Shown piece by piece: positions 3,901-20,435 of a stretch of DNA of 20,641 nt. The position numbers were made by a program, and so were the translations under genes. How positions within the stretch are numbered: position 1 is the stretch's first letter; each line of letters opens with the position of its first letter. Source of the stretch: Coleofasciculus chthonoplastes F2-STO-03. Its GTDB lineage: Bacteria; Cyanobacteriota; Cyanobacteriia; Cyanobacteriales; Coleofasciculaceae. The notes beneath the pieces are model-generated. The model was not told the DNA's origin and made no database searches. It worked only from the letters and a program-made list of their open reading frames with translations. The stretch spans positions 1-20,641 of the forward strand of contig JAVJWO010000082.1 of NCBI GenBank assembly GCA_040222015.1. The letters are read 5' to 3'.

Positions 3901-4340
3901 CAAATACCCAAATTAAGGTAGCCGAGAAAGGGGTAATACCTCTACCAGAGGTTTTGGGTCATCGTGCTACACTTATGCAAGTTGTATCAAATTTGATGGC
4001 TAATGCGATCAAGTTTATCCCGGAAAAAGTACAGCCTCAGATACAGGTGTGGGCAGAAGAACGAAAAGACGTTAATGGTAATACATGGATACGACTCTGG
4101 ATTGAGGATAATGGAATTGGCATTGAACCGGAATACCAAGAAAAGATTTTCCTGGTATTTGAACGCTTACATGGTCGTGAACACTATCATGGTAGTGGTA
4201 TTGGTTTAGCCCTTGTCCGTAAAGGTATGGAACGTCTAGGAGGACGTTCGGGCGTTGAATCATCACTCCATCAGGGAAGCCGATTTTGGATTGAGGCGCA
4301 AAAAGTAGAGACGTGTCATGACTTCTCTGTTAGGGAATAG
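903..4340 (+). CDS. Multi-sensor histidine kinase: REC-GAF-LOV(PAS)-PAS-PAS-GAF-HisKA-HATPase (Cph1/BphP-type kinase core)
   Basis: N-terminal REC (LLLIDED...IADDELP...FT...DYIIK); GAF (SQAGYTL...VEDLRTESRF...SGMSVII); LOV motif GRNCRFLH at nt 2058-2081 with RNYRKDG, FWN and GVQ; PAS (WNQGAQRLYGW); H-box FSYTVSHDLRAPLR; N box NLMANAIKF; G1 DNGIGI; G2 GSGIGLA. Confidence 0.93.
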   Translation: MINTPVHLLLIDEDPDERALIIRQLQQEFSALHVAQPTNAKDLNQVLLDGHFDIAIADDELPWTTGIAVFKQVKRLQPACPFIMFTSQDSAELAVMAMKAGINDYIIKSPSHYPKLVTAVRSALAPKLKSQSSRLEATPPITISQNLQLIATLQARVTQQTTIVRFSQYALRGIDIDSLMNCAVTLLAKTLDVDYAKVLELLPHGKALLLRAGVGWQVGLVGQATVDTETNSQAGYTLLSQEPIVVEDLRTESRFSAPPLLRDHGVVSGMSVIIPGLSLAKPGTLKHWDTMPTPDSQPFGILGIHSTGSRQFSQDDINFLQAIANILGAAIDRCQQAERLRILESAVNASSNGILISDPYQSDNPIIFVNSGFERLSGYSASEILGRNCRFLHEDDSNQVQLEELRQAIATQKECQVTLRNYRKDGSVFWNDLYISPVRNSQGTLTHFLGVQTDVTAQKLALERLRQQAQLLDLANDAIMVLDWQGKITYWNQGAQRLYGWSSQEAIGQNAHQLLHTIFPQELSDIEAQLWHQEYWPGELIQTTQDGTQITVASRWTLQRDYQGNPLAILEVNHNISAYKRTEKALRQSEQRFRLAVNHSPDMLVIYDAQRRFIFVNTTTLERTGKSSTDYLGHRDEEIWSPEVTSSYLPTLKRVIETRTPQTVEATIRLPNTNPFTTVIKYVPMLNELGEIVQILGFTFDITQRKQLEIQLRQTIDRLQTLQTLDQAILAEQPPPAIAQVALTGLKSLLSCRHLSVVVFDWDSSQATILATDGEMETLAGTTIDIKHFTEEIAQLNDGKINQLKPSETVNLLRPIVQALLSRNANCFQIIPLRSKQELIGTINLDCQGENDDNEEYRTIVQEVANQLAIAIAQSRLQQQLKRYTTELEERITERTQELQAINGELEAFSYTVSHDLRAPLRAMQGFANALVEDCGSQLDSIGLDYTQRITTAAQRLDTMIQDLLEYSRLGRLEFPLKPISLDSIVSEVLFQLQELIKNTNTQIKVAEKGVIPLPEVLGHRATLMQVVSNLMANAIKFIPEKVQPQIQVWAEERKDVNGNTWIRLWIEDNGIGIEPEYQEKIFLVFERLHGREHYHGSGIGLALVRKGMERLGGRSGVESSLHQGSRFWIEAQKVETCHDFSVRE

Positions 4341-4400
4341 GGGCGAGTTTTACCGATCAGGTTTGGCTGTAAACTGATAAGAAACTAAACCTGTTCTCCT
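4305..4400. repeat. Two degenerate REP-like elements overlapping the kinase 3' end (GTAGAGACGTGTCATGACTTCTCTGT; TAGGGGCGAGTTT...AAACCTGTTCTCCT)
   Basis: Similar to the REP at 858-881 and to the GTAGGGGCGGGTTT/AAACCCGCCCCTAC pairs at 6538 and 7849. Confidence 0.55.
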
Positions 4401-4427
4401 CAGTCTTTGAGGTTTGGAGTAAGTTTT

Positions 4428-4883
4428 ATGGAGAAGATTATGAGTAGTAAACCTGCCGATATTTTACTCGTTGAAGATGATGATAATGACGTTTTTTTAA
4501 TTCAGCGTGCATTTAAACGCCTCGATTTACCTCATTCACTGCAAGTTGTCACAAATGGAGAGGAGGCAATCAATTACCTAGACCGCAAAGCGCCGTATAA
4601 TAACCTAAAATCCCATCCTATTCCAACTCTTATCTTACTGGATTTAAAACTGCCTCGTAAATCCGGTTTAGAAGTTTTAGCTTGGATTCGACAGCAATCT
4701 CAGTTAAAACGTCTATTAGTTGTGGTATTAACGGCATCCAGAGAAACGCCGGACATTAATAAAGCGTATGATATGGGCGCTAATTCTTATTTAGTGAAAC
4801 CTGTAAGCTTTCATGATTTTTTAGAAATGATTCGTACTCTTGACCTATATTGGTTAATGTTCAACGAAAAACCGTTAGTCTGA
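4428..4883 (+). CDS. Single-domain response regulator, Rcp1/RcpA (phytochrome-partner) type; start ATG 4428 or 4440
   Basis: ILLVEDDDND, LILLDLKLPRKSG (phospho-Asp), VVLTAS, GANSYLVKP, C-terminal YWL; GGAG-like SD before both ATGs. Confidence 0.92.
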   Translation: MEKIMSSKPADILLVEDDDNDVFLIQRAFKRLDLPHSLQVVTNGEEAINYLDRKAPYNNLKSHPIPTLILLDLKLPRKSGLEVLAWIRQQSQLKRLLVVVLTASRETPDINKAYDMGANSYLVKPVSFHDFLEMIRTLDLYWLMFNEKPLV

Positions 4884-4929
4884 ATTGTATTGTGAATTAC
4901 TTAATTTTCAATTCCCTGTTCCCTGAACA

Positions 4930-4978
4930 ATGACAAATGACAAATGACAAATGACAAATGACAAATGACAAATGACAA
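4930..4978 (+). repeat. STRR heptamer tandem repeat (ATGACAA)x7, overlapping the start of the downstream kinase
   Basis: Seven exact units at 4930, 4937, 4944, 4951, 4958, 4965 and 4972; preceded by TTCCCTG x2. Confidence 0.95.
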
Positions 4979-6479
4979 ACCCGTAAGAATCCTGCTCATT
5001 GACGATAACCCCGACGATCGTATGTTAGCGCTACGCCGACTAGAGCAGGAGTTTGAACAATTACAGTCTAAAGAGATTACCGATATCAAGCAACTCCAGC
5101 AGGTATTAGCCGAGCGAAAGTTTGATATCGTCGTCACTGATTATAGCTTGCGTTGGAGCAATGGTTTAAATGTACTGCACCAAGTCAAGCAGCAGTATCC
5201 AGATTGCCCTGTAGTCATGTTTACCGGGACAGGAAACGAAGAAATTGCGGTTAAGGCGATGAAGTCAGGACTTGACGATTATATTATTAAATCCCCTCAG
5301 CATTATACTCGTCTTGCTGCTGCCGTGCGAGCAGCTTGGGAGCGCTCCAAGCAACATCAAGCCTTCAAAGAGATGCAACAACGATATCAACAACTCTTTG
5401 AAAGCGTACCCATTGGACTTTACCGGATGACACCAACGGGTCAAATTATTGAAGCCAATCCAACCCTGTTGCAACTGTTAGGATATCCCAGTGTACAAGC
5501 CTTGCTGGACACAAATATATCCAAGCACCTTGTCGATACTCAAGCCAATCGTTTATGGCAGAGTCAGATAGACGGCGAAGGAGTGGTACGAAACTTGGAA
5601 ATACCGATGCGTCGGTGTGATAATACCATGATTTGGGTACGCTACAATGCTCGTGCTATTCGCAATGCTCAGGGCGAAGTCATGTACTATGAGGGCGCGA
5701 TTGAAGATGTCACCCAGCGCAAGCAAGCGGAAACAGAACGGACTCAATTGCTCAAGAGTGAACAAGCCGCCCGGGCTGAAGCCGAAACTGCGAATCGCTT
5801 AAAAGATGAATTTTTAGCCACCCTATCCCATGAACTGAGAACGCCCCTGAATGCGATTCTAGGATGGGCGGGACTCTTGCGAAGAAAGCAACTGAGTCCA
5901 GACAAAGTACAGCGGGCGTTAGAAGTAATTGAACGCAATGCTAAGTCTCAAGCCCAGCTTATTGATGACTTGCTGGATGTGTCGCGGATTATTCGGGGTA
6001 ACTTGCGCTTAAATGTGATCCCAGTTGACTTGCAGCAGGTTATCAACGCCGCCATTGATACCTTACAACCCGCCGCTGACGCTAAAAGCATTCAGATTGA
6101 CTCATTTTTAGAACCGAGTCAGACTGTGATTAAGGGGGATAGCGATCGCTTACAGCAAATTGTTTGGAATCTTTTGTCTAATGCGATTAAGTTTACCCCA
6201 ACTCACGGACAAGTCAAGATTTATTTGGAATGGTTAGAAAATGCGGTACACATTCGGGTACAAGACACGGGGAAGGGTGTGTCTGTTGACATTGCGCCTT
6301 ACATTTTTGACCGCTTTCGCCAAGCCGAAGGCTCAATAACTCGTTCCCATGGCGGATTAGGACTAGGATTGGCAATTGTGCGTCACTTAGTTGAACTGCA
6401 CGGGGGAACTGTGTGGTGCGAAAGCCCTGGAGACGGAAAGGGAGCCACTTTTACTGTGGAGCTACCGCTCAAACCTTAA
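4965..6479 (+). CDS. REC-PAS-HisKA-HATPase histidine kinase
   Basis: REC (ILLIDDNPDD...VTDYSL...FTGTG...DYIIK); PAS (FESVPIGLY...ANP...YYEGAIEDVT); H-box EFLATLSHELRTPLN; NLLSNAIKFT; DTGKG; GGLGLGL. Confidence 0.93.
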   Translation: MTNDKPVRILLIDDNPDDRMLALRRLEQEFEQLQSKEITDIKQLQQVLAERKFDIVVTDYSLRWSNGLNVLHQVKQQYPDCPVVMFTGTGNEEIAVKAMKSGLDDYIIKSPQHYTRLAAAVRAAWERSKQHQAFKEMQQRYQQLFESVPIGLYRMTPTGQIIEANPTLLQLLGYPSVQALLDTNISKHLVDTQANRLWQSQIDGEGVVRNLEIPMRRCDNTMIWVRYNARAIRNAQGEVMYYEGAIEDVTQRKQAETERTQLLKSEQAARAEAETANRLKDEFLATLSHELRTPLNAILGWAGLLRRKQLSPDKVQRALEVIERNAKSQAQLIDDLLDVSRIIRGNLRLNVIPVDLQQVINAAIDTLQPAADAKSIQIDSFLEPSQTVIKGDSDRLQQIVWNLLSNAIKFTPTHGQVKIYLEWLENAVHIRVQDTGKGVSVDIAPYIFDRFRQAEGSITRSHGGLGLGLAIVRHLVELHGGTVWCESPGDGKGATFTVELPLKP

Positions 6480-6686: not shown

Positions 6687-6730
6687 TATACCCTGAGATA
6701 GAAACAATACAGCCAAAACTTTAGGATAAT
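6687..6730 (+). promoter_or_regulatory. 7-2-7 box TATACCC-TG-AGATAGA, then 22 nt, then -10-like GATAAT, upstream of ldhA
   Basis: 16/18 identity with the site at 14325-14342 and the same spacing to a -10-like hexamer. Confidence 0.6.
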
Positions 6731-6792
6731 AAAGCATCAATATTTCATGAATTAATCGAAAAAAGCAAACTTGAGCAATAGAAGGTAAAATT

Positions 6793-7794
6793 ATGAAAAT
6801 CATTGTTTTCACTGTTGAAGCCTGGGAACGCGATATCTTTGAAAAACTGAGTCCCGTCCATCACGTTGAATGTGTGGAGCAGTCACTAACTACAGACAAC
6901 GCCAGCCACTATGCGGATGCCGATGTTATTTCCACGTTTATCTACTCAGATTTGAGCGCAGATGTTTTAAAACAATTTAACAATCTGCAAATGCTCGCCA
7001 CGCGATCAACAGGCTTTGACCACATTGATACAGACTATTGTCAAGAACATGGCATCAAAGTCTGCAACGTACCCACCTATGGTGAGAATACCGTAGCTGA
7101 ACACGTTTTTGCACTGCTATTAGCTCTCAGCCATAATTTAATCGAGTCAACAGATCGCACTCGCAAAGGTGATTTTTCCCAGGTAGGGCTTCAAGGCTTC
7201 GACTTGCGTGGTAAAACTTTGGGTGTAGTTGGTATAGGAAATATTGGAGAATGCGTAATTGAAATTGCCAAGGGATTTCGCATGGAGGTTGTGGCGTTTG
7301 ATGTGAAGCCAAAAGAAGAATTGGCATCGCGGCTGGGGTTTCGGTATGCCGAGATGAAAGACGTCTTATCCACTGCCGATATTATCACTTTACATGTTCC
7401 AGCGAATCCGAAAACCCATCATCTCATTTCCACTGAACAATTTGATAGCATGAAAGATGGTGTTATTTTAATTAATACCGCTCGTGGATCTATAGTAGAT
7501 ATCAATGCCCTATTGCAGGCATTGGCTGAGGGTAAGGTTGCTGCAGCGGGTTTGGATGTGCTACCCGAAGAACCTGTAATGCGCGAGGAAGCCGAACTGT
7601 TGCGATCGGTTTATCGCAAACAGCATGATTTAGAAACCTTACTGGCTGATCATATTTTATTACGCCTACGGAATGTGATTGTTACTCCTCACAGTGCTTT
7701 TAATACTAAGGAAGCTGTCCAGCGGATTATCGATACAACGGTTGAAAATATTGTCGCATTTGCTGAAGGTAATCCTCAAAATGTTGTAGCATAA
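6793..7794 (+). CDS. ldhA: D-lactate dehydrogenase / D-isomer-specific 2-hydroxyacid dehydrogenase (NAD-type)
   Basis: RSTGFDHID, NVPTY, VAEH, GVVGIGNIG..AFD (acidic residue favouring NAD), LHVP, INTARG, GLDV.PEEP, VTPHSAFNT; SD GAAGG. Confidence 0.85.
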   Translation: MKIIVFTVEAWERDIFEKLSPVHHVECVEQSLTTDNASHYADADVISTFIYSDLSADVLKQFNNLQMLATRSTGFDHIDTDYCQEHGIKVCNVPTYGENTVAEHVFALLLALSHNLIESTDRTRKGDFSQVGLQGFDLRGKTLGVVGIGNIGECVIEIAKGFRMEVVAFDVKPKEELASRLGFRYAEMKDVLSTADIITLHVPANPKTHHLISTEQFDSMKDGVILINTARGSIVDINALLQALAEGKVAAAGLDVLPEEPVMREEAELLRSVYRKQHDLETLLADHILLRLRNVIVTPHSAFNTKEAVQRIIDTTVENIVAFAEGNPQNVVA

Positions 7795-7833
7795 GGGATG
7801 AATTTAATCTAGTTAAGTATACCTCCAATTACT

Positions 7834-7851
7834 CCCCATCAACAGATGGGG
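7834..7851. terminator. Hairpin CCCCATC-AACA-GATGGGG between convergent genes
   Basis: Perfect 7-bp GC-rich stem 40 nt after the ldhA stop; no strong U-tract. Confidence 0.4.
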
Positions 7852-7908
7852 GCGGGTTTAGTCAAATCTGGGTGCAACCGAAAACATAGTAGTGAAACCC
7901 GCCCCTAC
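7849..7908. repeat. REP-like inverted repeat GGGGCGGGTTT-N35-AAACCCGCCCCTAC
   Basis: Perfect 11-bp arms with a terminal CTAC; lies between convergent stops. Confidence 0.85.
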
Positions 7909-7918
7909 ACCTTTTTCC

Positions 7919-9283
7919 TTAAGATGTACCTTTATTCTTGCCGATCGCGTTAATTAATTTTTTCGCTGCAATCGCACCAACCGCAACACCGCCAACCACT
8001 TGCGCTACCTTAACTGCCCGATTCAGATTACCATCAGAGAGATAGCGATGGAAAATTTCATCTTGCAGCCATTGTGCTGTAATCTTTAAATTACGAGCTG
8101 GTGTAGGCAAGAGTTCCAGATAAGTACCTTGACGAATTAAATGACCCATTTCTCCGGTGACTTCAAACTCTTCAAACAGGTTAGCCGCACCGTTACTGAT
8201 ACCCAGTTTGAGCAATGTTCCTCGGATATTCACCTGAGCTGGTAGAAGTTGACGATCAAAAGCTAAGGCAAATAAATTATCCGCGATCGCTTTCCCTTGT
8301 TGATAGGCTACCTGGGCGGTTGGGGGTAAGGAATTGTCCTGAATTGCTGCACAATCGCCTCCCGCAAAAACCTCTGGAAAATCCAATAATTGCAGCGTAG
8401 GTGTCACGTAGGGGCGCCCGTGATGATCCCGTTTATCTTTGGGAATCGGTAGGTCTTTAATTAAAGGATTAGTACTGGTTCCTGTTGTCCAGATGGCAGT
8501 TGATGTGGGTAAAGTATGAGTTTTATCATCTTTCTGATACTCAACTGCATCGGGGCGAATGGCTGTCGCTTGCGCCTCCATAATCAATTCCACAGGTACG
8601 GCGCGTTTTTGCAACTCCTGATAGGTGGGTTCCCGTAACGGATCATTAATGTCACCTTTGAGGATTTGCGAACCATGATTAATTAAAACGATACGAATAT
8701 CCTCTGGAGTACCCCCTAACGCCTCATACCAATAAGGAAGTAAATCCGCTAACGTTGCAGCCATCTCCACCCCAGAGGGTCCAGCACCAATCACGGCGAC
8801 GGTGAGCAGTTGACGGCGGATATGGGGATCGATAGTTTGCACCGCACGTTGCAGACAATCCCGAAGTTGCTGATCGATCGCGATCGCATTCTGTTGGGTG
8901 CGTAAGGGGAAAGCGTTTTCCTTGACGCCTTCAACGCCAAAATATCCCGTCACGCTACCTAATGCTAAGACTAAATTACTGTAGTTATAGATTGTACCTG
9001 AGGCTAATTTTACCTCCCGTTGCGGTAAGTCAATCTCTTGTACCGTATCTTGAACAAAAACCACACCGCTATCTTGTAGTAATTGATCAAACCGAGGGAC
9101 AACTTTTTGAGCATCCATTTCACCACTGCAATATTCATAGAGCAACGGCTTAAAACAAAAGCGTTCATCTCGATCAATTAGGATAACACTGCGCGGATAA
9201 TGGTGATGAGACAAATGCAAGGCGGTAAAAAGTCCCGTAAAGCCACCGCCAAGAATGACTGTTTGATGAATGGGATGAGTCAT
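7919..9283 (-). CDS. Type-II NAD(P)H:quinone oxidoreductase (NDH-2 family FAD oxidoreductase); likely start ATG 9283 (ORF extends to GTG 9310)
   Basis: VILGGGFTG, FKPLLYE, LVLALGS, VIGAGPSGVEMA, WTTG, VFAGGDCA, PPTAQVAYQQG; hydrophobic C-terminal tail. Confidence 0.88.
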   Translation of the reverse strand: MTHPIHQTVILGGGFTGLFTALHLSHHHYPRSVILIDRDERFCFKPLLYEYCSGEMDAQKVVPRFDQLLQDSGVVFVQDTVQEIDLPQREVKLASGTIYNYSNLVLALGSVTGYFGVEGVKENAFPLRTQQNAIAIDQQLRDCLQRAVQTIDPHIRRQLLTVAVIGAGPSGVEMAATLADLLPYWYEALGGTPEDIRIVLINHGSQILKGDINDPLREPTYQELQKRAVPVELIMEAQATAIRPDAVEYQKDDKTHTLPTSTAIWTTGTSTNPLIKDLPIPKDKRDHHGRPYVTPTLQLLDFPEVFAGGDCAAIQDNSLPPTAQVAYQQGKAIADNLFALAFDRQLLPAQVNIRGTLLKLGISNGAANLFEEFEVTGEMGHLIRQGTYLELLPTPARNLKITAQWLQDEIFHRYLSDGNLNRAVKVAQVVGGVAVGAIAAKKLINAIGKNKGTS

Positions 9284-9393
9284 AATCTTACTCTCTGAAT
9301 CTCTACTCACGAATAAACTTTTTGCCCAGGCTTTTACTTAGATTACTTAGATTAGTTTCTGTGCAAAGCTTAACTATGTAATCACCACAATTA

Positions 9394-9459
9394 AGCCTAG
9401 ACTCTTTACGATCAATGTCAACACAAATAAACTTAATTATTCCTCTATCTTTCAGTAGA
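9394..9459 (-). promoter_or_regulatory. 7-2-7 box (plus strand TCTATCT-TT-CAGTAGA, 9444-9459) upstream of a TTGACA-N16-TAGGCT promoter-like element for the NDH-2 gene
   Basis: Perfect TCTATCT half-site; minus-strand TTGACA at 9421-9416 and TAGGCT at 9399-9394. Confidence 0.55.
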
Positions 9460-9486
9460 TATTATAAAATTTTCCGGTAATTTTGC

Positions 9487-9521
9487 TCCCCCCCCTTTTG
9501 AAATAGGGGGTTGGGGGGGAT
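9487..9521. repeat. C-rich/G-rich cyanobacterial dispersed palindromic repeat (CCCCCCCCTTTTGAAATAGGGGGTTGGGGGGGA); possible 3' hairpin of the oxidase operon
   Basis: C8 and G5/G7 runs can pair; lies 10 nt downstream of the ctaE stop. Confidence 0.55.
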
Positions 9522-9530
9522 ATGACCGAC

Positions 9531-10163
9531 TCACCACACGTAAAGGAGTAGAAATAAAACCACCCAAATCCCATCAACAACGTGCCAGAACAACGAAACC
9601 GCCGTAACGCCAAAGTGACCCCGGTTGTAATTTCCTGGAATAAATGAACGAACTAACATCAGCATTTGCAGAAAAATACCGACGAAAACATGCAACCCAT
9701 GGAACCCCGTTAACACATAAAACGTTCCGCCTAATGTCGCCGCATTTAGACCAAAATCCAGGTGTTGCCACTCTTTAACCTCACCGACTAAAAAGTAAGC
9801 GCCCATGATAGAGGTCGTCAACCACAAGAAGCGAAATTGGGTAAATTTGTGGTGAGATAAAGCCCGTTCCGCTAAATAAATCACCAAGCTACTCGAAACC
9901 AACACGACAGAATGAATTATCACCGAACCCGACAATTCAGGTGCGGAAACACCGGGAGGACGCCAATCATCAGTTAAAGCCCGCAGACCCACATAAGCGA
10001 CAATTAAACTCGCGAAGATCATGCTTTCGGACAGCAAGAAGAGGGTAAAGCCAAACAGGACTTTACCTCGCTCATCCTCAAGTTTTTCCTTGTCAGCCAC
10101 TTTAGCGTGAGGATTTTTCAACTCACGAGACGGAATAAACTTTTCTAGCCTGGATTTTATCAT
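9531..10163 (-). CDS. ctaE: Heme-copper oxidase subunit III (ARTO/Cox3-type)
   Basis: LFLLSESMIF, LVSSS, FYVLTGFHGLHV, FWHVVDGIW.LF.LLY. Confidence 0.93.
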   Translation of the reverse strand: MIKSRLEKFIPSRELKNPHAKVADKEKLEDERGKVLFGFTLFLLSESMIFASLIVAYVGLRALTDDWRPPGVSAPELSGSVIIHSVVLVSSSLVIYLAERALSHHKFTQFRFLWLTTSIMGAYFLVGEVKEWQHLDFGLNAATLGGTFYVLTGFHGLHVFVGIFLQMLMLVRSFIPGNYNRGHFGVTAVSLFWHVVDGIWVVLFLLLYVW

Positions 10164-10229
10164 TTAAGTAACTACCTGACTATAAATAATGTAGGTTATA
10201 AAATAATAATGTTAAAACCAATCAAATCC

Positions 10230-10313
10230 TTACAAATTACAAATGATAAATTACAAATGATAAATGACGAATGACGAATGACAAATGACGAATGAAGAAT
10301 GACGAATGACGAC
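10230..10313 (+). repeat. STRR heptamer array, 12 units (TTACAAA/TGATAAA/TGACGAA/TGACAAA variants) between ctaD and ctaE
   Basis: Uninterrupted 7-nt period from 10230 to the ctaD stop codon. Confidence 0.9.
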
Positions 10314-12008
10314 CTATTTATGATGTCTATCAATCGCTCCCGGATCAGTTGAATCTACCCTAGAATAGGTGGGTTGACCATAACTGTAGGGCGCTAATCT
10401 CACCGTCGGAATTTCCTCAAAATTCTCCTTCGGTGGCGGTGAAGAAACCGTCCATTCCAGTCCAGTCGCCTGCCAAGGATTGTTGCCAATTTTAACCCCG
10501 TATAACCAAGACGCCACCATGTTGGCAATAAAAGGCAGGGTTGATACCCCCAATAAAAACGCACCCAAGCTGGCTAAAACATTTCCCCCCATATACTGGG
10601 GTGGATATGACGAAACCCGACGCACCATTCCCTGTAAACCCACCGCCAGCATCGGAAAAAAGGTTAGGTTTGCCCCAATAAAGGTGAGCCAAAAATGTAC
10701 CTTACCCCAGCCCTCGTTATACGCCCGCCCCGTCATCTTCGGGAACCAGAAATAAATGGCGGCGAAGATAGCAACCGTAATCGTGTTGTAGACAATGTAG
10801 TGAAAATGTCCAACAATAAAATGAGTGTTGTTGACATGAATATCAAAGGGCATTACACCGAGCATCACCCCGGTAATACCACCGAGGAGAAACATCACCA
10901 CACCCCCTAGGGCAAACAGCATCGGTGTATCCAAATGAAGCCGACTTTTCCAAACAGTTGCTGTCCAAGCAAACACCTTAATTCCTGTAGGTACAGCCAC
11001 CAATTCCGACGTAAACATAAACAGCACCCGCATCCATTCCGGCGTACCACTGGCAAACAGATGGTGCGCCCAGACAAAAGCACTCGCCAAAGCGATTCCG
11101 AACGACGCCAGCGCGACTGAACGATAACCAAAAAGAGGATTGCGGGAAAAAGCCGGGATGATTTCTGAGAAAATACCAAATGCAGGTAATGCCCAAACAT
11201 AAACCGTTGGGTGAGAATAGAACCAGAACATGTGCTGGTAAAGGAGGGGACTTCCCCCGTTAAATGGATTAAAGAAATTAGTGTTAAATGTCAAATCAAA
11301 AAGTAGCAGGATTAAACCGCCCGTGAGAGAGGGAAGGAAAAGGAGTTGAAGTAACTGGGCGCTGAGAACAGTCCAGACAAAAATCGGCATCCGAAAAAAG
11401 GTCATTCCGGGTGCGCGTAACCGGACAATCGTCGTCACCAAATTCAGGGCTGCCATAATTGATGAAATCCCCAACAGCAGCAGACTCAAAATCCAAAACA
11501 ATTGACCATTAATTAGCGAACCCGATGGGTTTTGCGTACTCAACTGTGGGTAAGACCACCAGCCTGATTGGGGGACACCACTAGGCAATAAAAAGCTGGA
11601 TATGAGGAGAATTCCGGCGGGGGGAATCATCCAAAAAGACAGGGCATTGAGGAAGGGAAACGCCATATCCCTTGCCCCAATCATCAGCGGTATTAAATAG
11701 TTAGAAAGCCCTGCCAAGGCGGGAATAATCCAGAGAAAGATCATCACCGTACCATGCATGGTGAACAAGCCATTGTACAGGGTGCGATCCACTAAATCAG
11801 ACGCCGGGGTGATTAGTTCAGCCCGGATTAGCATCGCCAACAGACCCGCGATAAGAAAGAAAATAAAAGAGGTGACTAGATACTGAATTCCGATAACTTT
11901 GTGGTCTTGGTTAAAGGTGAAATAGTTCCACCAATCGGTCTCTGATTCACTATGAGAATCGGGCAAATTGCCAGCACCATCAATTTCATGAATAGAATGA
12001 TTTGTCAT
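10314..12008 (-). CDS. ctaD: Heme-copper oxidase subunit I (A2-type YS motif; ARTO/Cox3-like)
   Basis: DHKVIG, TMHGT, RDMAFP.LN, WFYSHPTVY (His-Tyr cross-link), WAHH, PTGIK, GHFHY, GMVRR. Confidence 0.95.
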   Translation of the reverse strand: MTNHSIHEIDGAGNLPDSHSESETDWWNYFTFNQDHKVIGIQYLVTSFIFFLIAGLLAMLIRAELITPASDLVDRTLYNGLFTMHGTVMIFLWIIPALAGLSNYLIPLMIGARDMAFPFLNALSFWMIPPAGILLISSFLLPSGVPQSGWWSYPQLSTQNPSGSLINGQLFWILSLLLLGISSIMAALNLVTTIVRLRAPGMTFFRMPIFVWTVLSAQLLQLLFLPSLTGGLILLLFDLTFNTNFFNPFNGGSPLLYQHMFWFYSHPTVYVWALPAFGIFSEIIPAFSRNPLFGYRSVALASFGIALASAFVWAHHLFASGTPEWMRVLFMFTSELVAVPTGIKVFAWTATVWKSRLHLDTPMLFALGGVVMFLLGGITGVMLGVMPFDIHVNNTHFIVGHFHYIVYNTITVAIFAAIYFWFPKMTGRAYNEGWGKVHFWLTFIGANLTFFPMLAVGLQGMVRRVSSYPPQYMGGNVLASLGAFLLGVSTLPFIANMVASWLYGVKIGNNPWQATGLEWTVSSPPPKENFEEIPTVRLAPYSYGQPTYSRVDSTDPGAIDRHHK

Positions 12009-12031
12009 TTTTGTAACCCTGATTATTCTAA

Positions 12032-12943
12032 CTAACTGGCATAATTGACAACAGGCGGTGGAGTGGGTAAAGTAGTGTGCCAGTGGCTTTGAAACAGCCT
12101 CTTCGGTGGTGTTTCATATTCAGAAACGGCTTGATTGTTCGCTAAGGTTGGCTCATGGCTAGCGGCTTGGGCTAACCACTGGTCATAATTCTCCAGAGAA
12201 TCCACATAAACATCCGCTTGCATCAGAGCGAAGTAAGTACCACTGAATTGGGAATCCTGTAGCTGATAATGACCCTCGCGAGTGGGAATAAATTGAAAGT
12301 CAATGGGACGATTAGGGATAATATCTTGTTTAATCCGGAACTCTGGAATGTAAAATCCATGCAGTACATCGTTTGACTGCAACACTAAGCGAACTCGCTG
12401 ATTCACAGGTAAATGTAACTCGGTGCTGGTGACATTTTGCTGCGGATAGCGAAATGACCAGTTCCACTGCTGGGAAATTACCTCTATCTCTACTGTTGGT
12501 TCAGAGTCGGGAGGAACGGTTTCTGCATAAGCAGGTTTAGTTCCCCAAGGTAAATGAAACTCGGCTAATACCTGCTGGGGACCAGCGATATCCATTTGGT
12601 CATAAATATAGAACCCGTACCCAGAAATCCACAACACCAGCAGAATTGGAATTCCTGTCCAAATTGCTTCGATTTTAAGATTTCCCCGGGACGGATGACC
12701 TTCGCGGTAGTCTCCCGGATCTGCCCGACAGGTAAGAATAGAATAGGCGATCATTCCCACAACACAAAGGAAAATAATCGAACTCATGCAGACGAGAAAG
12801 CTAAACAAGTTATCAATCCGTTCGGCATCGGTGGTGGCTTGAATGGGCATCCAATGATACGCTTCCTGTCCCACCCAATAACTGATGATAATAATCATCG
12901 CCACAGCAACGACTATGAGTAAATATTCTATAGTTCTCAACAT
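12032..12943 (-). CDS. ctaC: Heme-copper oxidase subunit II lacking CuA ligands (ARTO/CoxB3-type)
   Basis: IEAIWTGIP, QQWNWSFRYP, DVLHGFYIP, KQDIIP; the CuA motif CxExCGxxHxxM reads DSQFSGTYFALM. Confidence 0.92.
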   Translation of the reverse strand: MLRTIEYLLIVVAVAMIIIISYWVGQEAYHWMPIQATTDAERIDNLFSFLVCMSSIIFLCVVGMIAYSILTCRADPGDYREGHPSRGNLKIEAIWTGIPILLVLWISGYGFYIYDQMDIAGPQQVLAEFHLPWGTKPAYAETVPPDSEPTVEIEVISQQWNWSFRYPQQNVTSTELHLPVNQRVRLVLQSNDVLHGFYIPEFRIKQDIIPNRPIDFQFIPTREGHYQLQDSQFSGTYFALMQADVYVDSLENYDQWLAQAASHEPTLANNQAVSEYETPPKRLFQSHWHTTLPTPPPVVNYAS

Positions 12944-12978
12944 AAAACTATTGCTACATTCAACAGTATTGTTTGGGG

Positions 12979-13584
12979 TTAATCTAGCACAAGATTGGGG
13001 TTTTTATGCTGTTGGAGTAAGTGAACTGCCGTATTGTGAATGCCAAACTCATCTCCCAATTGCGCTCCCAGAGTGCCGTGAAGGTAGAGGATACCAAGGA
13101 GGATAACACCCACAACCAGATAACTCCACTGCACTTGTTGACCAGCGTCTGTGCGCCACCGATAGCGCTGTAAGCCTCTCCACACCGTCATGGCAACAAT
13201 TACTGTTAACAGGAGAACACCGCCGACACCATGCCAAAGCATCGTTTGACCTGCCCCTAATCCCCAATCACTGATCTGATTGATGGGCGGATTTGCCAAC
13301 ATCATTTCAAAAAAGCCGATCGCGACGGTAAAAAAGGTGATCACAGCACAACCAAGTAGATTGTACCAGCCCACATCAAAAAATCCCGAACGGATAGCTG
13401 GAAGCCGGAAAAATTCTAGAATCGGTCGTTCTAATTTAAAAAATGTTCCGGCTAGATCAAAGATAATGGCAATAATAAATAGACCTAGAGTTAGATGGAC
13501 AAAATGGGGATGAATGGGAACCCGGTAGGGAAGTCCATTGACACCGAGTTTTAGTCCTAACTGATCAATAAGTTGCTGTTCCAT
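12979..13584 (-). CDS. DUF2231-like membrane protein (ARTO operon accessory gene 2)
   Basis: PIHPHFVHLTLG, WHGVGG, LHGTLGAQLG..FGIH; about 4 TM segments; TAATG overlap with the upstream gene at 13584. Confidence 0.8.
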   Translation of the reverse strand: MEQQLIDQLGLKLGVNGLPYRVPIHPHFVHLTLGLFIIAIIFDLAGTFFKLERPILEFFRLPAIRSGFFDVGWYNLLGCAVITFFTVAIGFFEMMLANPPINQISDWGLGAGQTMLWHGVGGVLLLTVIVAMTVWRGLQRYRWRTDAGQQVQWSYLVVGVILLGILYLHGTLGAQLGDEFGIHNTAVHLLQQHKNPNLVLD

Positions 13585-14066
13585 TACAATAGCCCCTGCT
13601 TAGTCGCTTCTACAATAGGTTCTAAATGTAATCCATAAACCCACATTAATTGGCTACCCAGATACATTTGAAATAATACCAAAGAGACTAAAAAAGTGGC
13701 AACTCCTAAATAAGCGGGTGGTATTTTCAACGGGTCACGAGAGCGAATAGCAAAGCGCCATGCCGTTATAGCAACAACGATCGCGGAGAGTGACCATCCC
13801 GTAACTGAATGCCAATTTAGTGTGGATTGAGCGGCTGGATAAGGTTTAGCCAAACTCGCTTCAAGCTGTCCAAAAAACACCGCAAAGAAAATCGCGATCG
13901 CGGCGACAAATAAATTCCAAAAACTGACCTCAAATAGATGGTATCGGCGGCTGAAATAACCAATGATATCGCAGACGAAAGCGAACAACACCATGGCGAT
14001 GACGAAATGGACAATGATCGGATGGATCAGATCGGGATAGGGTAGATTCTGGCTATTGAGAGACAT
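13584..14066 (-). CDS. DUF2231-like membrane protein (ARTO operon accessory gene 1)
   Basis: LIHPIIVHFVIA, WNL, WHSVTGW, LGSQLMWVYGLH; strong SD GAAGGAG. Confidence 0.8.
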   Translation of the reverse strand: MSLNSQNLPYPDLIHPIIVHFVIAMVLFAFVCDIIGYFSRRYHLFEVSFWNLFVAAIAIFFAVFFGQLEASLAKPYPAAQSTLNWHSVTGWSLSAIVVAITAWRFAIRSRDPLKIPPAYLGVATFLVSLVLFQMYLGSQLMWVYGLHLEPIVEATKQGLL

Positions 14067-14167
14067 TTTTTTCTCCTTCAGGCAAGCCCCACCCTGTCAG
14101 GGTTAGCCACCTTAGCTCTGTTCATTTAAGGGCGTCTGAGAGGCTTAATCCGTAAACTACACCCTTA

Positions 14168-14211
14168 ATCTTGGTCTTGAGGGAATCACCAAGTATCTCT
14201 CTAAAGATAGA
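14168..14211 (-). promoter_or_regulatory. 7-2-7 box TCTCTCT-AA-AGATAGA (14196-14211), then 22 nt, then -10-like CAAGAT, for the oxidase operon
   Basis: Closest of the four sites to a perfect palindrome; same 22-nt spacing on the minus strand. Confidence 0.6.
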
Positions 14212-14285
14212 GATTATTGGGAGAACTGTTAAAAAATAATAATCGACTTAATTTGTAATAAATATGAAATATCAATGACATAGGA

Positions 14286-14370
14286 TTGACATATTTATTT
14301 GCTAATAATATATTCCTCCTAGATTTTATTCCTTGAGATAGAGGTTTTTATGAAAATTAATTTTTAAAGT
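14286..14370 (+). promoter_or_regulatory. Tandem promoter region of the GH15 operon: TTGACA-N17-TATATT (14286-14314), then 7-2-7 box TATTCCT-TG-AGATAGA (14327-14342), 22 nt, TAAAGT
   Basis: Near-consensus sigma70 elements and the shared motif read directly. Confidence 0.6.
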
Positions 14371-14457: not shown

Positions 14458-16854
14458 ATGGTGAAATTACTGACTCAAAATCAAGCCTTTGGTTCACCCG
14501 GAATGACTCCCCGATGGACTCATGCCAATAAAAAGGGAATTGGAACCGCTTACTCCACCGCCAGTCAAATCTGGTTTACTGTCTGGAATGGTGTTGTCAC
14601 CGAAGTCTACTATCCCAGAGTGGATCGACCGCAGATTCGGGATCTTCAGTACCTCATTGGTGATGGTCAAACGTTTTTCCATGAAGAGAAGCGCCATCTC
14701 CAATCCCACATAGAACGCCTTCAAGATCAGACGTTGGGCTACCGCCTGATCAATTCTCATCCCCAGGGACACTATACAATCATCAAAGAAGTGATCGCTG
14801 ATCCCCATCTTTCGTGCTTACTTCAGCACACTCAGTTAAAAGCTGAACCAAAAGTCCGTTCTCAGCTTCAACTGTACGCTTTATGTGCCCCCCATCTTCA
14901 AGTTGGGGGTTGGGGAAACAATGCATCGGTTATCGAAGTGGCTGGACACCGCATTTTGACCGCTCACAAAGAAGGAGTTTGGCTGGCGCTGGGAGCCACA
15001 ATACCTTTTAAGCATCTGTCCTGTGGCTACGTCGGTCAAAGCGATGGCTGGACGGATTTAGCCGATAATTTCCAGATGGACTGGGAATTCGATCAGGCGT
15101 TGGATGGTAACTTAGCATTAATGGGCGAACTTTCAATCCATCAGGGCGATGAATTCACCCTAGGACTTGCCTTTGGTGACAGCCTGCACGCGGCGGCAGC
15201 CACCCTGTTTCAGTCGCTCAACCTTCCTTTTGCCAACCAGAAGAGACGGTATATCGAACAGTGGCAACGTTCCGACGATAAAATCCTGCCCTTAGAAACT
15301 GTTTCAAGTGATGGCGGGAACCTCTATCACAGCAGTATTAGCCTATTGTTGGCACATGAAGATAAGACCTATCCGGGTGCTTTAATTGCATCCCTTTCCA
15401 TCCCCTGGGGAGAAGCCAAAGGTGATCAAGACCAAGGGGGATACCACCTCGTCTGGACGCGGGATATGGTGAGCAGTGTCGCCGGTCTCGTCGCTGCCGG
15501 GGAAACGGATACCGCTATGCGATCGCTAATCTATCTTGCCACGAGTCAAAAAGAAGACGGTAGCTTTGCTCAAAACTTCTGGGTTAGTGGTGAACCCTAC
15601 TGGACAGGTATCCAACTCGACGAGGTTGCGTTTCCGATTCTGCTGGCGTGGCTGCTGAAGCGGGAAAAGGTTGCTTTCCACTTTGATATCTATCCAATGA
15701 TTATCAAAGCCGCAGGTTTTCTGGTTCGCCATGGACCTGCCACTCAACAAGAACGATGGGAGGAAAACAGTGGCTATTCCCCCTCAACCTTAGCCTGTAA
15801 CATTGCCGCGCTGATTTGTGCCGCTACTTTCGCCCATCAGCAGGGGGATGACGCCACCGCCAAATTCCTAGAGGACTACGCCGACTTTCTGGAAAGCCAC
15901 CTGGAAGCGTGGACTGTGACCACACAAGGAACGCTGGTGCCGGGGATTAAACGCCATTACATTCGTTTGACTCCAGCAGATATCGATAACCCGACGCCCC
16001 AAGAAGACCCGAACACCAGCACAATTTTTATCACCTCTCGCCCACCGAATACTCCCCATGAATTTCCAGCCAAAGAAATTGTTGATGGTGGATTCCTGCT
16101 TCTAGTTCGCTATGGGATTCGCCCAGCCGATGACCCGATTATCGTGGATTCGGTCAAGGTACTCGATGCCGTACTCAAAGTGGATACGCCCTATGGTTCC
16201 TGCTGGCATCGTTATAACAACGACGGCTATGGACAGCGAGAGGATGGAGGTCCCTTTGAAGGGTGGGGTCAAGGACGAGCGTGGCCCCTGCTGACCGGGG
16301 AACGGGGTCACTATGAACTCAGTGCTGGCGGTGATGTCCAATCCTTGATTCAGGCAATGGAAGGATTTGCATCCAACACAGGCTTGCTACCGGAGCAGAT
16401 TTGGGATGAATCCGATCGCCCGGAGTTGCATCTACATCTGGGCAAACCCACCACTTCTGCTATGCCCTTAATGTGGGCGCACGCCGAGTATCTCAAATTA
16501 CTGCGATCGCGCTATGACGGTCAGGTCTTTGACTTGATTCCAGAGGTAGCACAGCGATATCAAGGCGATCGCGCATCGTGCAAATTATTAGAGGTTTGGA
16601 AGTTTAACCGCCAAGTGAGTACAGTCCAAAAGAGTTATACGTTGCGGATTCAAGCTTCAGCCGCCTTTCGCCTCCATTGGTCAGCAGATGATTGGCAAAC
16701 GGTGCAGGATACTTCCTCAGCTTCAACCAGCTTGGGCATTGAGTATGTCGATATTCCGATTACGAGTGAGCTGCAAGCCCCCATCCGCTTTACCTTTTTC
16801 TGGACAGCCAGTAATCATTGGGAACAAAGGAACTATGAGGTTGCTGTTGAGTAA
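14458..16854 (+). CDS. GH15 glucoamylase/glucodextranase (glucan 1,4-alpha-glucosidase) with N-terminal beta domain and C-terminal extension
   Basis: K.GIGTA, EVYYP, IASLSIPWG, GYHLVWTRD, QLDE, QERWEE (general acid), YNNDGYG, WPLLTGERGHYE, LPEQIW (general base), PLMWAHAEY; no signal peptide visible. Confidence 0.92.
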   Translation: MVKLLTQNQAFGSPGMTPRWTHANKKGIGTAYSTASQIWFTVWNGVVTEVYYPRVDRPQIRDLQYLIGDGQTFFHEEKRHLQSHIERLQDQTLGYRLINSHPQGHYTIIKEVIADPHLSCLLQHTQLKAEPKVRSQLQLYALCAPHLQVGGWGNNASVIEVAGHRILTAHKEGVWLALGATIPFKHLSCGYVGQSDGWTDLADNFQMDWEFDQALDGNLALMGELSIHQGDEFTLGLAFGDSLHAAAATLFQSLNLPFANQKRRYIEQWQRSDDKILPLETVSSDGGNLYHSSISLLLAHEDKTYPGALIASLSIPWGEAKGDQDQGGYHLVWTRDMVSSVAGLVAAGETDTAMRSLIYLATSQKEDGSFAQNFWVSGEPYWTGIQLDEVAFPILLAWLLKREKVAFHFDIYPMIIKAAGFLVRHGPATQQERWEENSGYSPSTLACNIAALICAATFAHQQGDDATAKFLEDYADFLESHLEAWTVTTQGTLVPGIKRHYIRLTPADIDNPTPQEDPNTSTIFITSRPPNTPHEFPAKEIVDGGFLLLVRYGIRPADDPIIVDSVKVLDAVLKVDTPYGSCWHRYNNDGYGQREDGGPFEGWGQGRAWPLLTGERGHYELSAGGDVQSLIQAMEGFASNTGLLPEQIWDESDRPELHLHLGKPTTSAMPLMWAHAEYLKLLRSRYDGQVFDLIPEVAQRYQGDRASCKLLEVWKFNRQVSTVQKSYTLRIQASAAFRLHWSADDWQTVQDTSSASTSLGIEYVDIPITSELQAPIRFTFFWTASNHWEQRNYEVAVE

Positions 16855-16880
16855 GTCGGTGGAAAAATTAAAGTTATTTT

Positions 16881-16901
16881 CGTCATTGGTCATTTGTTAT
16901 T
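16881..16901 (-). repeat. Short degenerate STRR (about 3 heptamers) before gnd
   Basis: cgtcatt-ggtcatt-tgttatt is the reverse orientation of the AATGACA family. Confidence 0.5.
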
Positions 16902-16922
16902 CATCAAAGGAGAAAAGGAAAA

Positions 16923-17906
16923 ATGGCAGACATAAAAAAAGAATTCGGTGTAGTCGGCTTAGGCAAAATGGGCGGAAATCTGGCGATGCAAGCATTACAA
17001 AAAAGGATGCGAGTCGTTGGATATACCCGTAGCCATGCCTCTCAAAACTTACTGGATGCGGGTTTAGTTGAAATCGACTCCCCCGCCCGGTTTAAAGACC
17101 AGTTCGAGTCCCCTCGTGCTGTGTTTATGTATGTTCCAGCCGGACCCATTGTCAATTCCGTCATTGATCAACTTGCTTCTCATTTAGAAGACGGTGACAT
17201 TATCGTCGATGGGGGAAACTCTTACTGGGGAGATTCCATTCGTCGGCATAATAAACTGCGTCTAGAAAAAGGGATTCATTATGTCGATTTAGGCACCAGT
17301 GGTGGCATTGAAGGGGCACGTCATGGCGCTTGCTTTATGGCAGGAGGAGAACCAGAGGCGATTGCCCGCATTGAACCCATCCTAAACGATTTATCTGTTG
17401 AGGGGGGTTACGTTCATGCTGGAGCTACGGGTGCGGGTCACTTTGTTAAACTTGTCCACAATGGTATTGAGTTTGGTATGCTTCAGGCGATTGCTGAAGG
17501 CATGGCATTACTAGAACATTACCATCAAAATCGCTCATCCATTGATATTGCTAATACTCTCAACTGTTGGTGTCATGGCTCTGTGATTCGTTCCTGGTTG
17601 GTAGAACTGATGCACAAAGCCTATTCCAATCAGGGAGGATTGGCGAGTATTCCCCCCTATGTGGAAGATACAGGGGAAGTTAATTGGCTGGTAAACGACG
17701 CCCTACAGATGGAAGTGCCAACCCCTGTCATTAATCAGTCGGTTGTGCAGTTGTTTACTTCACGGGATGATCAGCAGAACTGGGCGCGGGCGATTGCCAT
17801 GATGCGTCATGGTTTTGGGGGACACCCGTATGGACATAGTGAAAAAATCGTTAAGGAACGTCACGAAGGACGAGTAGGCAGTTTCTTGTCCTCAGAAAAC
17901 CCTTGA
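16923..17906 (+). CDS. gnd: 6-phosphogluconate dehydrogenase (decarboxylating), short YqeC/GntZ-like type
   Basis: GLGKMGGN, VPAG, DGGNS, GTSGG, VKLVHNGIEFG, GSVIRSWL, DTGE, MRHGFGGH; 327 aa. Confidence 0.92.
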   Translation: MADIKKEFGVVGLGKMGGNLAMQALQKRMRVVGYTRSHASQNLLDAGLVEIDSPARFKDQFESPRAVFMYVPAGPIVNSVIDQLASHLEDGDIIVDGGNSYWGDSIRRHNKLRLEKGIHYVDLGTSGGIEGARHGACFMAGGEPEAIARIEPILNDLSVEGGYVHAGATGAGHFVKLVHNGIEFGMLQAIAEGMALLEHYHQNRSSIDIANTLNCWCHGSVIRSWLVELMHKAYSNQGGLASIPPYVEDTGEVNWLVNDALQMEVPTPVINQSVVQLFTSRDDQQNWARAIAMMRHGFGGHPYGHSEKIVKERHEGRVGSFLSSENP

Positions 17907-18562
17907 TGGGAGTGAAAAAGCTGGTGAGAGAACCAAGTTCTATTCACGAATATGAATCTGTACGCGATCGCATAAAAACGGGAGACGTGATTGCCTTTTC
18001 GGGCAGGCTATGCATTTCCCACTTAAATCAGTGGGTTACTCAATCTCCCTACTCCCATGTCGCCATGGTGCTTGAGGTAGAAATGGGGGGTGGCTTTGGC
18101 AAAAGTGTACTGATTATCGAATCAGCCGCCCCCCAAACCGAGCGAGATCCCATCGGCAGAAAAGCGATTAAAGGGGTTCAAATTAATTGGCTCTCTCGAC
18201 GATTAGATATGTATAAGGGCAAAGCCTGGTGGCTACCCTTACAGGAACCCATTGCCCCAGATCAGTTACTCAAAATGCAGATGTGGTTAAGACAAACCTA
18301 TAACGAACGCAGACCATTTGATACTCTACAGGCAGCCAAGGCAGGGGTGATACTTTTGAATCGGTTAGGGTTAGGAAATAAACTGGATCTTTCGGCTCTA
18401 TTTTGTTCTGAACTGGTTACCGCCGCGTTACAAATTGCGGACGTGGTTGATCCCTATATCAATCCCTCAAAGCAGACACCTGCTGATGTAGTTAATTTTC
18501 CTTGCTTTTCCCACCCCCCGATTTTGATTAAGCCTTTTCCTTCTCGGTGTAAACCTCAATAG
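17906..18562 (+). CDS. Permuted papain-like NlpC/P60 hydrolase (YiiX/YebB-like), translationally coupled to gnd
   Basis: KTGDVIAFSG, SPYSHVAMV (His) before FCSELV (Cys), TPAD; TGATG stop/start overlap at 17904-17908. Confidence 0.75.
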   Translation: MGVKKLVREPSSIHEYESVRDRIKTGDVIAFSGRLCISHLNQWVTQSPYSHVAMVLEVEMGGGFGKSVLIIESAAPQTERDPIGRKAIKGVQINWLSRRLDMYKGKAWWLPLQEPIAPDQLLKMQMWLRQTYNERRPFDTLQAAKAGVILLNRLGLGNKLDLSALFCSELVTAALQIADVVDPYINPSKQTPADVVNFPCFSHPPILIKPFPSRCKPQ

Positions 18563-18610
18563 GAAAATTAGATACGAGTTAATTTTGATGTTCACGGTTA
18601 TCGAAAAATT

Positions 18611-19420
18611 ATGAGCTATTCTCCCTATTTACTTCAAGGTCAAAAAGCCCTCGTTACAGGCGGAAGTTCTGGGATTGGCGCAGGTGTAGTGCGTCAGTTA
18701 GCCAAAGCGGGTGCAACTGTTGCGATCAACTATCATTCCCATGGCGAAGCGGCTGAAAAAATTGTCGAGGATATTAAATCTGCCCATGGGGAAGCGATAG
18801 CCATTCAAGCGGATGTCAGCCAAGAAGCAGATGTCAAGGCGATGTTCTCTAAAGTCTTGAACGAATTTGGCACAATTGATATCTTGGTCAACAATTCCGG
18901 TATCCAAAAAGATTCACCCTTCCTCGATATGAGTTTAGAGGATTGGAACTTAGTTCTCGGCGTGAATTTAACGGGTCAATTTTTATGCGCTCGTGAAGCC
19001 GCAAAAGAATTTTTACGACGTGGTGTACAACCTCAAATTTCTTGCGCGGCGGGAAAAATTATTTGTATGAGTTCAGTACATCAAATTATTCCTTGGGCAT
19101 GTCACGTCAACTATGCCACCAGTAAAGGCGGTATTAATATGATGATGAAAACCATCGCCCAAGAACTTGCCCCTCATAAAATTCGCGTGAATAGTATTGC
19201 TCCGGGTGCGATTAAAACACCGATTAACAAATCATCTTGGGACACCCCAGACGCTGAAGCCAAATTACTTGAACTAATTCCTGCCAATCGCGTTGGAGAC
19301 GTGGATGATATTGGGAAGGCGGCGGTTTGGCTGGCGTCTGATGACTCCGATTATGTCAATGGCACAACCTTGTATGTGGATGGTGGGATGAATTTATATC
19401 CTGGCTTTGCCACAGGTTAA
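18611..19420 (+). CDS. gdh: Glucose 1-dehydrogenase-like classical SDR
   Basis: TGGSSGIG, INYHS, NNSGIQ, SSVHQIIPW, YATSKGG, VNSIAPGAIKTPIN, VDGGM.LYP.F (Bacillus GDH-like signature). Confidence 0.85.
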   Translation: MSYSPYLLQGQKALVTGGSSGIGAGVVRQLAKAGATVAINYHSHGEAAEKIVEDIKSAHGEAIAIQADVSQEADVKAMFSKVLNEFGTIDILVNNSGIQKDSPFLDMSLEDWNLVLGVNLTGQFLCAREAAKEFLRRGVQPQISCAAGKIICMSSVHQIIPWACHVNYATSKGGINMMMKTIAQELAPHKIRVNSIAPGAIKTPINKSSWDTPDAEAKLLELIPANRVGDVDDIGKAAVWLASDDSDYVNGTTLYVDGGMNLYPGFATG

Positions 19421-20393: not shown

Positions 20394-20435
20394 GGATAAG
20401 CAAGTAAGGGATGAATAAGCATTCGACTCCACATT

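Follow-up and report, generated by a model that had tools for sequence, protein, structure and literature searches.

A 7-2-7 inverted repeat before oxidase, glycoside hydrolase and dehydrogenase genes of Coleofasciculus chthonoplastes is a likely operator of the OrrA subfamily

The stretch of DNA analysed here, referred to as the window, is the whole of contig C82 (JAVJWO010000082.1, 20,641 nucleotides) from the 7.72-Mb, 219-contig genome of Coleofasciculus chthonoplastes F2-STO-03 (G000). It carries a two-component cluster (903-6479), a gene for an ldhA-like dehydrogenase, a gene for an NDH-2-like flavoprotein, a DUF2231-DUF2231-coxBAC operon and a run of genes for a GH15 glycoside hydrolase, a 6-phosphogluconate dehydrogenase (gnd), a protein of no family and a glucose dehydrogenase (Table 1). 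For one protein encoded there, the closest named relatives are Coleofasciculus records, at 93-95% identity. Because its subunit II lacks the CuA cysteines, we take the oxidase to be a quinol oxidase of the alternative respiratory terminal oxidase (ARTO) type. A sequence-only reading of this DNA had proposed that a palindromic box of two heptamers separated by two nucleotides lies upstream of four metabolic transcription units, and that these units belong to an unannotated regulon co-activated by one transcription factor. The four 16-mers in question, at 6687, 9444, 14196 and 14327, are present exactly as written there, and all are intergenic. They are the only window matches to TCTATCTNNAGATAGA at three or fewer mismatches, with 0.95 matches expected and 2 of 100 shuffles reaching four. 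Read towards their genes, the proximal halves are AGATAGA, AGATAGA, AGAGAGA and AGATAGA, which bears out the proposed form AGA(T/G)AGA. The hexamers said to follow each box after 22 nt could likewise be located (GATAAT at 6725-6730, CAAGAT at 14173-14168, TAAAGT at 14365-14370 and TTGACA at 9421-9416), but TAAAGT alone fits TANNNT in full. At ldhA the complete TANNNT is TAGGAT, 19 nt past the box. Past the oxidase box the first complete TANNNT does not occur before 36 nt, and the TTGACA beyond the NDH-2 box is followed after 16 nt by TAGGCT (9399-9394), an arrangement that would correspond to class I spacing. The count of four transcription units is doubtful at NDH-2, which may not be a separate unit because its gene comes 248 nt after coxC in the same orientation and is found downstream of the oxidase genes, again co-oriented, in 7 other genomes.

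The boxes are almost certainly a real operator. They likely represent a NarL-type operator of known kind, an OrrA box that is apparently undescribed, and sequence comparison indicates that this box is probably bound by the NarL regulator of the OrrA/NfSrr1 subfamily encoded at C47:12323 in the same genome. The suspected regulon extends far beyond the window.

Evidence for an operator is found in the genome-wide distribution of the motif, which refines to T(C/A)TAYCT-N2-AGRTAGA, a 16-bp inverted repeat. Open reading frames (ORFs) were called with our own rough caller (5979 ORFs), and the coding and non-coding labels behind these counts carry errors. At two or fewer mismatches and a 2-nt gap the motif occurs at 27 non-coding and 9 coding sites, whereas gaps of 0, 1 and 3-8 nt give 6-19 non-coding sites and 59 permuted heptamers give 9.0 ± 4.1 with a maximum of 23. 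The motif is enriched in non-coding DNA with its peak at the 2-nt gap, and this enrichment confirms the inverted heptamers and fixed gap for which a NarL-family character had been proposed. A seeded matrix, started from the consensus of the sequence-only reading and trained without C82, concentrates its information at C2, C6, G11 and G15. It reaches at least 12.5 bits in 51 of 3941 promoter regions, compared with a mean of 21 and a maximum of 34 for 12 permuted matrices, and at least 16 bits in 21 regions, where permuted matrices average 2.5. The class II activator spacing proposed from the window is also seen genome-wide, with TANNNT located 22-24 nt gene-ward of the box in 15 of 46 promoters outside C82 and 0-8 in the other 3-nt bins. 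When 146 sites are pooled, TANNNT is most frequent at 23 nt, with lesser peaks at 19 and 31 nt, and the gene-distal side gives 23 of 132. Pfam analysis of 48 genes beside top sites names Mn-catalase, YflT, BON, hemerythrin, CBM48 amylase, a sigma factor (SigC), STAS, a hybrid-cluster protein, pyrophosphatase, GlgC and an Rre1-like regulator; 14 of the 48 match no family, and many have nothing to do with stress. Individual sites include boxes before sigC and a hybrid-cluster protein gene, and a 15.4-bit box between the divergent genes for GlgC and the Rre1-like regulator (G000:C216:41150).

The same box emerged without seeding. Expectation-maximisation (EM) was applied to 46 promoters drawn at random from loci outside G000, all upstream of homologues of OrrA-dependent Anabaena genes. 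The top motif was TAtatCTtaAGaTaGA, ahead of HIP1, so that motif discovery in other genomes returned the proposed consensus box. With the resulting independent matrix, 14196, 14327 and 6687 are the first to third sites of the window, at ranks 8/9 and 33 of 3941.

The genome encodes 14 GerE matches over the cut-off, 7 of which are proteins with receiver and helix-turn-helix domains (REC-HTH). No DNA-binding domain is reported for the three two-component proteins of the window, in agreement with the earlier placement of the regulator outside it. Three Nostocaceae loci with the exact site of the orrA reverse quantitative PCR primer (PMC9804601) match C47:12323 at 66-68% and the other six LuxR proteins at no more than 38%, and G000 holds one OrrA/NfSrr1-subfamily NarL regulator (G000:C47:12323-13138). 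Three histidine kinases, two divergent REC-kinase hybrids and a convergent HAMP-PAS kinase, flank this gene (G000:C47:9201-15400) and are candidate cognate sensors. Among solved structures the OrrA DNA-binding domain is closest to LiaR/VraR, with TVKTHV in common, and the LiaR/CesR site TCAGHCTnnAGDCTGA (PMC4447274) scores 11-16 bits on our matrix. Since 6 of 7 second copies examined in Nostocaceae keep the recognition helix of OrrA, the claim is made for the OrrA subfamily.

Promoters of orrA itself and of homologues of OrrA-dependent genes carry the box; loci of Nostocaceae genomes served in place of the PCC 7120 promoters. In Nostocaceae, 20 of 20 orrA loci have it at 10 bits or more, 71-87 nt before the gene (of 23 loci given, 3 without a hit were dropped, and the genomes are related). 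Among named genomes 16 of 77 orrA promoters reach at least 12 bits (80 loci, 3 too short; control mean 2.2, maximum 11), and order-wide the box occurs in 8 of 29 loci, 7 of the 8 from one family. In Anabaena, induction in the wild type compared with the orrA mutant was reported as 236 versus 2.2-fold for katB, 69 versus 2.6 for susB, 72 versus 12 for lti2, 112 versus 2.7 for all0458, 278 versus 1.2 for avaKa and 16 versus 1.8 for orrA, and the OrrA-dependent induction of all0458 (Dps) as 112-171-fold (PMC9804601). In the susB class, assigned by primers, 11 of 13 promoters hold the box in a constant position, scoring 6-13 bits on the G000-trained matrix, and TANNNT follows it after 22-23 nt. 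OrrA binds the Nostoc flagelliforme susB promoter in yeast one-hybrid (PMC13131328), and in 4 susB orthologues with the bait reverse-primer site the box lies 106-144 nt upstream of that site, the forward end of the bait being unplaced; no mapped position was found for the bait forward primer or for the treZ electrophoretic mobility shift assay (EMSA) primers. The dps genes of the all0458 class have the box at 59-61 nt in 5 of 6 cases, and other ferritin-family loci reach 10 bits or more in 2 of 21. Boxes of at least 10 bits precede 11 of 20 short Mn-catalase genes (control mean 1.1) and 8 of 30 long ones. The long Mn-catalase promoters display a TAGTT element 19-20 nt past the box, often followed by (G/A)GGTA or GAGTA, perhaps pointing to a different sigma factor, and two Nostocaceae genomes hold divergent clusters of Mn-catalase and sucrose synthase genes. 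The CBM48 amylase, which we take to be Lti2-like, has the box in 10 of 29 promoters, and in 7 genomes from two families the amylase gene with the box follows orrA at a distance of 446-652 nt. The box also stands before homologues of susA and of some avaK genes. Across 201 genomes of the order, counts of YCWRYCTNNAGRYWGR relative to a reversed control are 4.3-fold in 155 OrrA-positive genomes (68 with an excess of at least 8) and 2.1-fold in 46 negative ones (4 with such an excess), with the qualification that kin are not independent and the control is imperfect.

The box before the oxidase operon of the window recurs in orthologous promoters. The first gene of the operon is present in 69 of 201 genomes, and a box of at least 12 bits precedes it in 8 of the best 29 non-self loci, where permuted matrices average 0.5 and 1 of 100 reaches 8. 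The orthologous boxes often read TC(A/T)AYCTTTAGA(T/A)AGA. In a tree of 30 first-gene proteins, a 14-row clade (support 100/99) has no box of at least 12 bits and the other 16 rows have 9, including the window. The ldhA box is identical in G001, a genome of the same genus, with 3 changes in the 19-nt spacer past it and unrelated DNA further upstream.

Several results weigh against the assignment to OrrA or against its reach across the window. The expected conservation in orthologous loci holds for the oxidase and fails for NDH-2, where 2 of 29 orthologues reach 12 bits and the box is degenerate in a 90%-identical orthologue of the same genus. It is patchy for GH15 (3 of 11 homologues at 12 bits or more, the two closest lacking the box) and for ldhA (kept in 1 of 10 orthologues, that of G001). 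In G000 the orrA promoter holds weak sites only (6.6-7.4 bits), and no site of at least 8 bits was found upstream of sucrose synthase or of two DUF2382 (avaK-like) genes. The mysA promoter is reported as OrrA-bound, and neither of two mysA-like loci has a site of at least 8 bits within 500 nt, one showing 12.7 bits at 654 nt. Of two mth promoters, one scores 2.8 bits over its nearest 415 nt, with a 19.8-bit site at 894 nt, and the second scores 8.2 bits; no intergenic site of at least 8 bits was found in 3 of 4 Nostocaceae katB regions. According to the available part of PMC9804601, like-named ARTO, D-lactate dehydrogenase, glucose dehydrogenase, gnd and NDH-2-like genes of Anabaena are not OrrA-induced. 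Furthermore, 87 of the 155 OrrA-positive genomes show no clear motif excess, the spacing from box to -10 is not uniform, being 19-20 nt for long Mn-catalases and about 28 nt for dps, and the genomes compared are related, so that counts overstate independence. That all four units are direct targets of C47:12323 appears doubtful on the sequence evidence, given the weak, unconserved NDH-2 box and the patchy conservation of the GH15 and ldhA boxes. The proposed single co-activating factor survives as a likely NarL-type regulator of the OrrA subfamily. Credible sites are those before the oxidase operon, GH15 and ldhA; transcription of the NDH-2 gene more probably continues from the oxidase promoter or is under weak control.

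A narrower account, in which the motif is real genome-wide and the oxidase operon is the sole target in the window, with 9444, 6687 and 14327 as chance or decayed copies, has perhaps one of the better claims among the alternatives and is still unlikely. It draws on the roughly 40% of promoter matches at 12.5 bits that permuted matrices lead one to expect (21 of 51) and on the poor conservation of these three boxes across families. However, 6687 and 14327 rank among the top three window sites on the independent matrix, the TAT-type distal half of both recurs at orrA, catalase and amylase promoters, and 6687 is unchanged in G001.

There is a small chance that the box is real and read by another NarL/LuxR regulator, possibly downstream of OrrA, namely C188:4539 (TVKTHV), C109:8900 (TVKNHI) or C216:41336, which we take to be Rre1/Ycf29. 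The C188 protein has the same TVKTHV helix as OrrA, the 15.4-bit box adjoins the Rre1-like gene, and OrrA dependence in microarrays can be indirect. Rre1, first suggested by that neighbouring box, was set aside on account of its proposed motif GTNCGGK (PMC13421787), which is unlike the box, its different recognition helix and a groES control, in which 5 of 6 promoters hold GTNCGGK on one or both strands and none of the 6 has a box of at least 8 bits. The C188 paralogue was set aside on its genome distribution and a promoter scan: the 13 genomes with C188 only show no excess of YCWRYCTNNAGRYWGR (ratio 1.94), compared with 3.99 in the 98 genomes with OrrA and no C188, and 1 of 29 C188 promoters carries the box.

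Reading of the 16-bp site by a CRP/FNR-family factor, as a switch for low-oxygen or dark metabolism, is improbable. The length of the box and its position near -42 would suit class II CRP/FNR promoters, and the box-bearing genes include the oxidase, the ldhA-like gene, a hybrid-cluster protein and a hemerythrin. The conserved letters C2, C6, G11 and G15 are nevertheless unlike the TGTGA or TTGAT half-sites of this family, and the box marks orrA, susB and dps promoters. Dispersed repeats or a compositional artefact with no regulator behind them are largely refuted and have almost no remaining probability: a repeated CCAGTCTGGAGACTGG element (CCAGTCT-GG-AGACTGG) does fit the IUPAC pattern and inflates the counts of one genome (G227), but the flanks of 60 G000 sites are unrelated (at best 30 of 60 letters common, median 26), which rules out a dispersed repeat, while the enrichment is tied to the 2-nt gap and non-coding DNA and the box position is fixed in orthologous promoters.

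Under the OrrA reading, the regulator would switch on the oxidase, glycoside hydrolase and dehydrogenase units under salt or drying stress. A histidine kinase would phosphorylate it, and the dimer would bind the repeat centred near -42.5/-43.5, over the -35 region, and recruit a sigma-70-type polymerase by class II activation. The GH15 enzyme could then free glucose from stored glucan, the glucose and 6-phosphogluconate dehydrogenases could produce NAD(P)H, and oxidation of this NAD(P)H by NDH-2 and the CuA-less oxidase could form a respiratory branch for drying or rewetting mats. A broader proposal makes T(C/A)TAYCT-N2-AGRTAGA the true operator for all OrrA/NfSrr1-subfamily regulators of the Cyanobacteriales, in place of the motif published for NfSrr1. 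The box would then delimit an ancient desiccation regulon, under direct control and autoregulated, which recruited a dedicated second ARTO/NDH-2 respiratory branch supplied by glucose oxidation; we put this forward tentatively, as somewhat short of an even chance. If true, it would connect drying stress with a branch of cyanobacterial respiration for which no such link has yet been drawn. OrrA acts as the master switch for desiccation tolerance in cyanobacteria. Hundreds of genes induced by salt and dehydration are under its control, and an orrA mutant fails to grow again once dried (PMC9804601). A defined box would separate direct from indirect OrrA targets and predict the regulon in any cyanobacterial genome. 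It would also challenge the motif proposed for NfSrr1, offer a compact stress-inducible promoter part, and assign an oxidase clade and a glucose-oxidation module to respiration under stress.

Other features of the window were noted in passing. The cluster at 903-6479, directly upstream of ldhA, encodes two hybrid kinases and a single-domain receiver; the first of the kinases has REC, GAF and PAS domains and carries a LOV-type GRNCRFLH motif, which possibly places a blue-light input beside the stress module. Positions 1-700 contain two overlapping frames that we take to resemble a broken IS200/IS605-type accessory gene; a Pfam search of 22-486 gave no match. The ORFs at 17903-18562 (219 aa, inside the GH15-gnd-gdh run) and 19455-20432 (325 aa) have no Pfam or NCBIfam family. 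Short tandem repeats of a kind typical of cyanobacterial intergenic DNA lie at 4929-4979 (AATGACA), 10232-10310 (ACAAATG) and 20459-20619 (GGGGAGCAG). A C-rich/G-rich inverted repeat at 9491-9510, between coxC and the NDH-2 box, is a possible terminator or stabilising hairpin that the terminator scan did not call; a simple promoter and terminator scan of 9250-9560 and an Rfam search of the window found nothing.

Table 1 Boxes, candidate promoter elements and genes of the window
Feature	Position	Strand	Details
ldhA box, TATACCC-TG-AGATAGA	6687..6702	+	90 nt before start; 12.6 bits, seeded matrix; rank 33/3941, independent matrix
Candidate -10 of ldhA	6722..6730	+	TAGGAT 19 nt or GATAAT 22 nt past box; kept in G001
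D-2-hydroxyacid dehydrogenase (ldhA-like), 333 aa	6793..7794	+	NCBIfam D-lactate/2-hydroxyacid dehydrogenase models, every match under cut-off
NDH-2-like Pyr_redox_2 flavoprotein	7919..9283	-	Pfam PF07992; oxidase operon linkage in relatives
Weak NDH-2 box, towards gene TCTACTG-AA-AGATAGA	9444..9459	-	14.3 bits, seeded matrix; 9.7 bits, rank 319/3941, independent matrix
Operon DUF2231-DUF2231-coxB-coxA-coxC	9531..14066	-	Subunit II without CuA cysteines (QDSQFSGTYF)
Weak candidate -10 of oxidase operon, CAAGAT	14168..14173	-	22 nt past box
Oxidase box (strongest), towards gene TCTATCT-TT-AGAGAGA	14196..14211	-	129 nt before start; 19.2 bits; rank 8/3941, independent matrix
GH15 box, TATTCCT-TG-AGATAGA	14327..14342	+	115 nt before start; 12.6 bits; second-best window site, independent matrix
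Candidate -10 of GH15 operon, TAAAGT	14365..14370	+	22 nt past box; start predicted near 14377
Likely operon: GH15 glucan glucosidase, NAD-dependent 6-phosphogluconate dehydrogenase (gnd_rel), 219-aa protein of no family, glucose 1-dehydrogenase-like SDR	14458..19420	+	

Comparison with known systems places the box closest to NarL-family regulators already described. In the available parts of the literature, including PMC9804601, PMC13131328, PMC11962455 and PMC12157317, no OrrA binding motif was found, although earlier OrrA papers may hold one; a literature search on the motif letters gave no match, and the available parts of PMC13421787, PMC4447274, PMC7760821, PMC4390843 and PMC9971976 are likewise without an OrrA motif. 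OrrA (Alr3768) of Anabaena sp. PCC 7120 and Dsp1-OrrA of N. flagelliforme (PMC9804601, PMC13131328) are NarL/LuxR REC-HTH proteins orthologous to C47:12323. The Anabaena OrrA regulon, as far as the available part of PMC9804601 describes it, does not include the like-named counterparts of the respiratory and glucose-oxidation genes of the window, and some reported targets of the OrrA system (mysA, mth) lack a clear box. The primers for NfSrr1 of N. flagelliforme (PMC11962455) translate to the OrrA-subfamily peptides IEDHNLTR and IGLPDMD, and its susB EMSA primers are the genomic parts of the OrrA one-hybrid bait primers (PMC11962455, PMC13131328). The motif published for NfSrr1 from a promoter alignment, ATMAGTAARCYYAAT (PMC11962455), is non-palindromic and, compared by eye, unlike the box. 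Rre1 (Ycf29; PMC13421787) is likewise a cyanobacterial NarL-family stress activator, and one box adjoins an Rre1-like gene in G000, but it differs in motif, recognition helix and chaperone targets. The LiaR/CesR/VraR boxes of Firmicutes (PMC4447274) share with the window boxes the 16-bp 7-2-7 form and C2, C6, G11 and G15. They differ in belonging to another phylum and to cell-envelope stress, in having AG at positions 3-4 where the window-type box has mostly TA, and, for Streptococcus mutans LiaR, in the additional need for a flanking A-rich stretch (PMC4447274).

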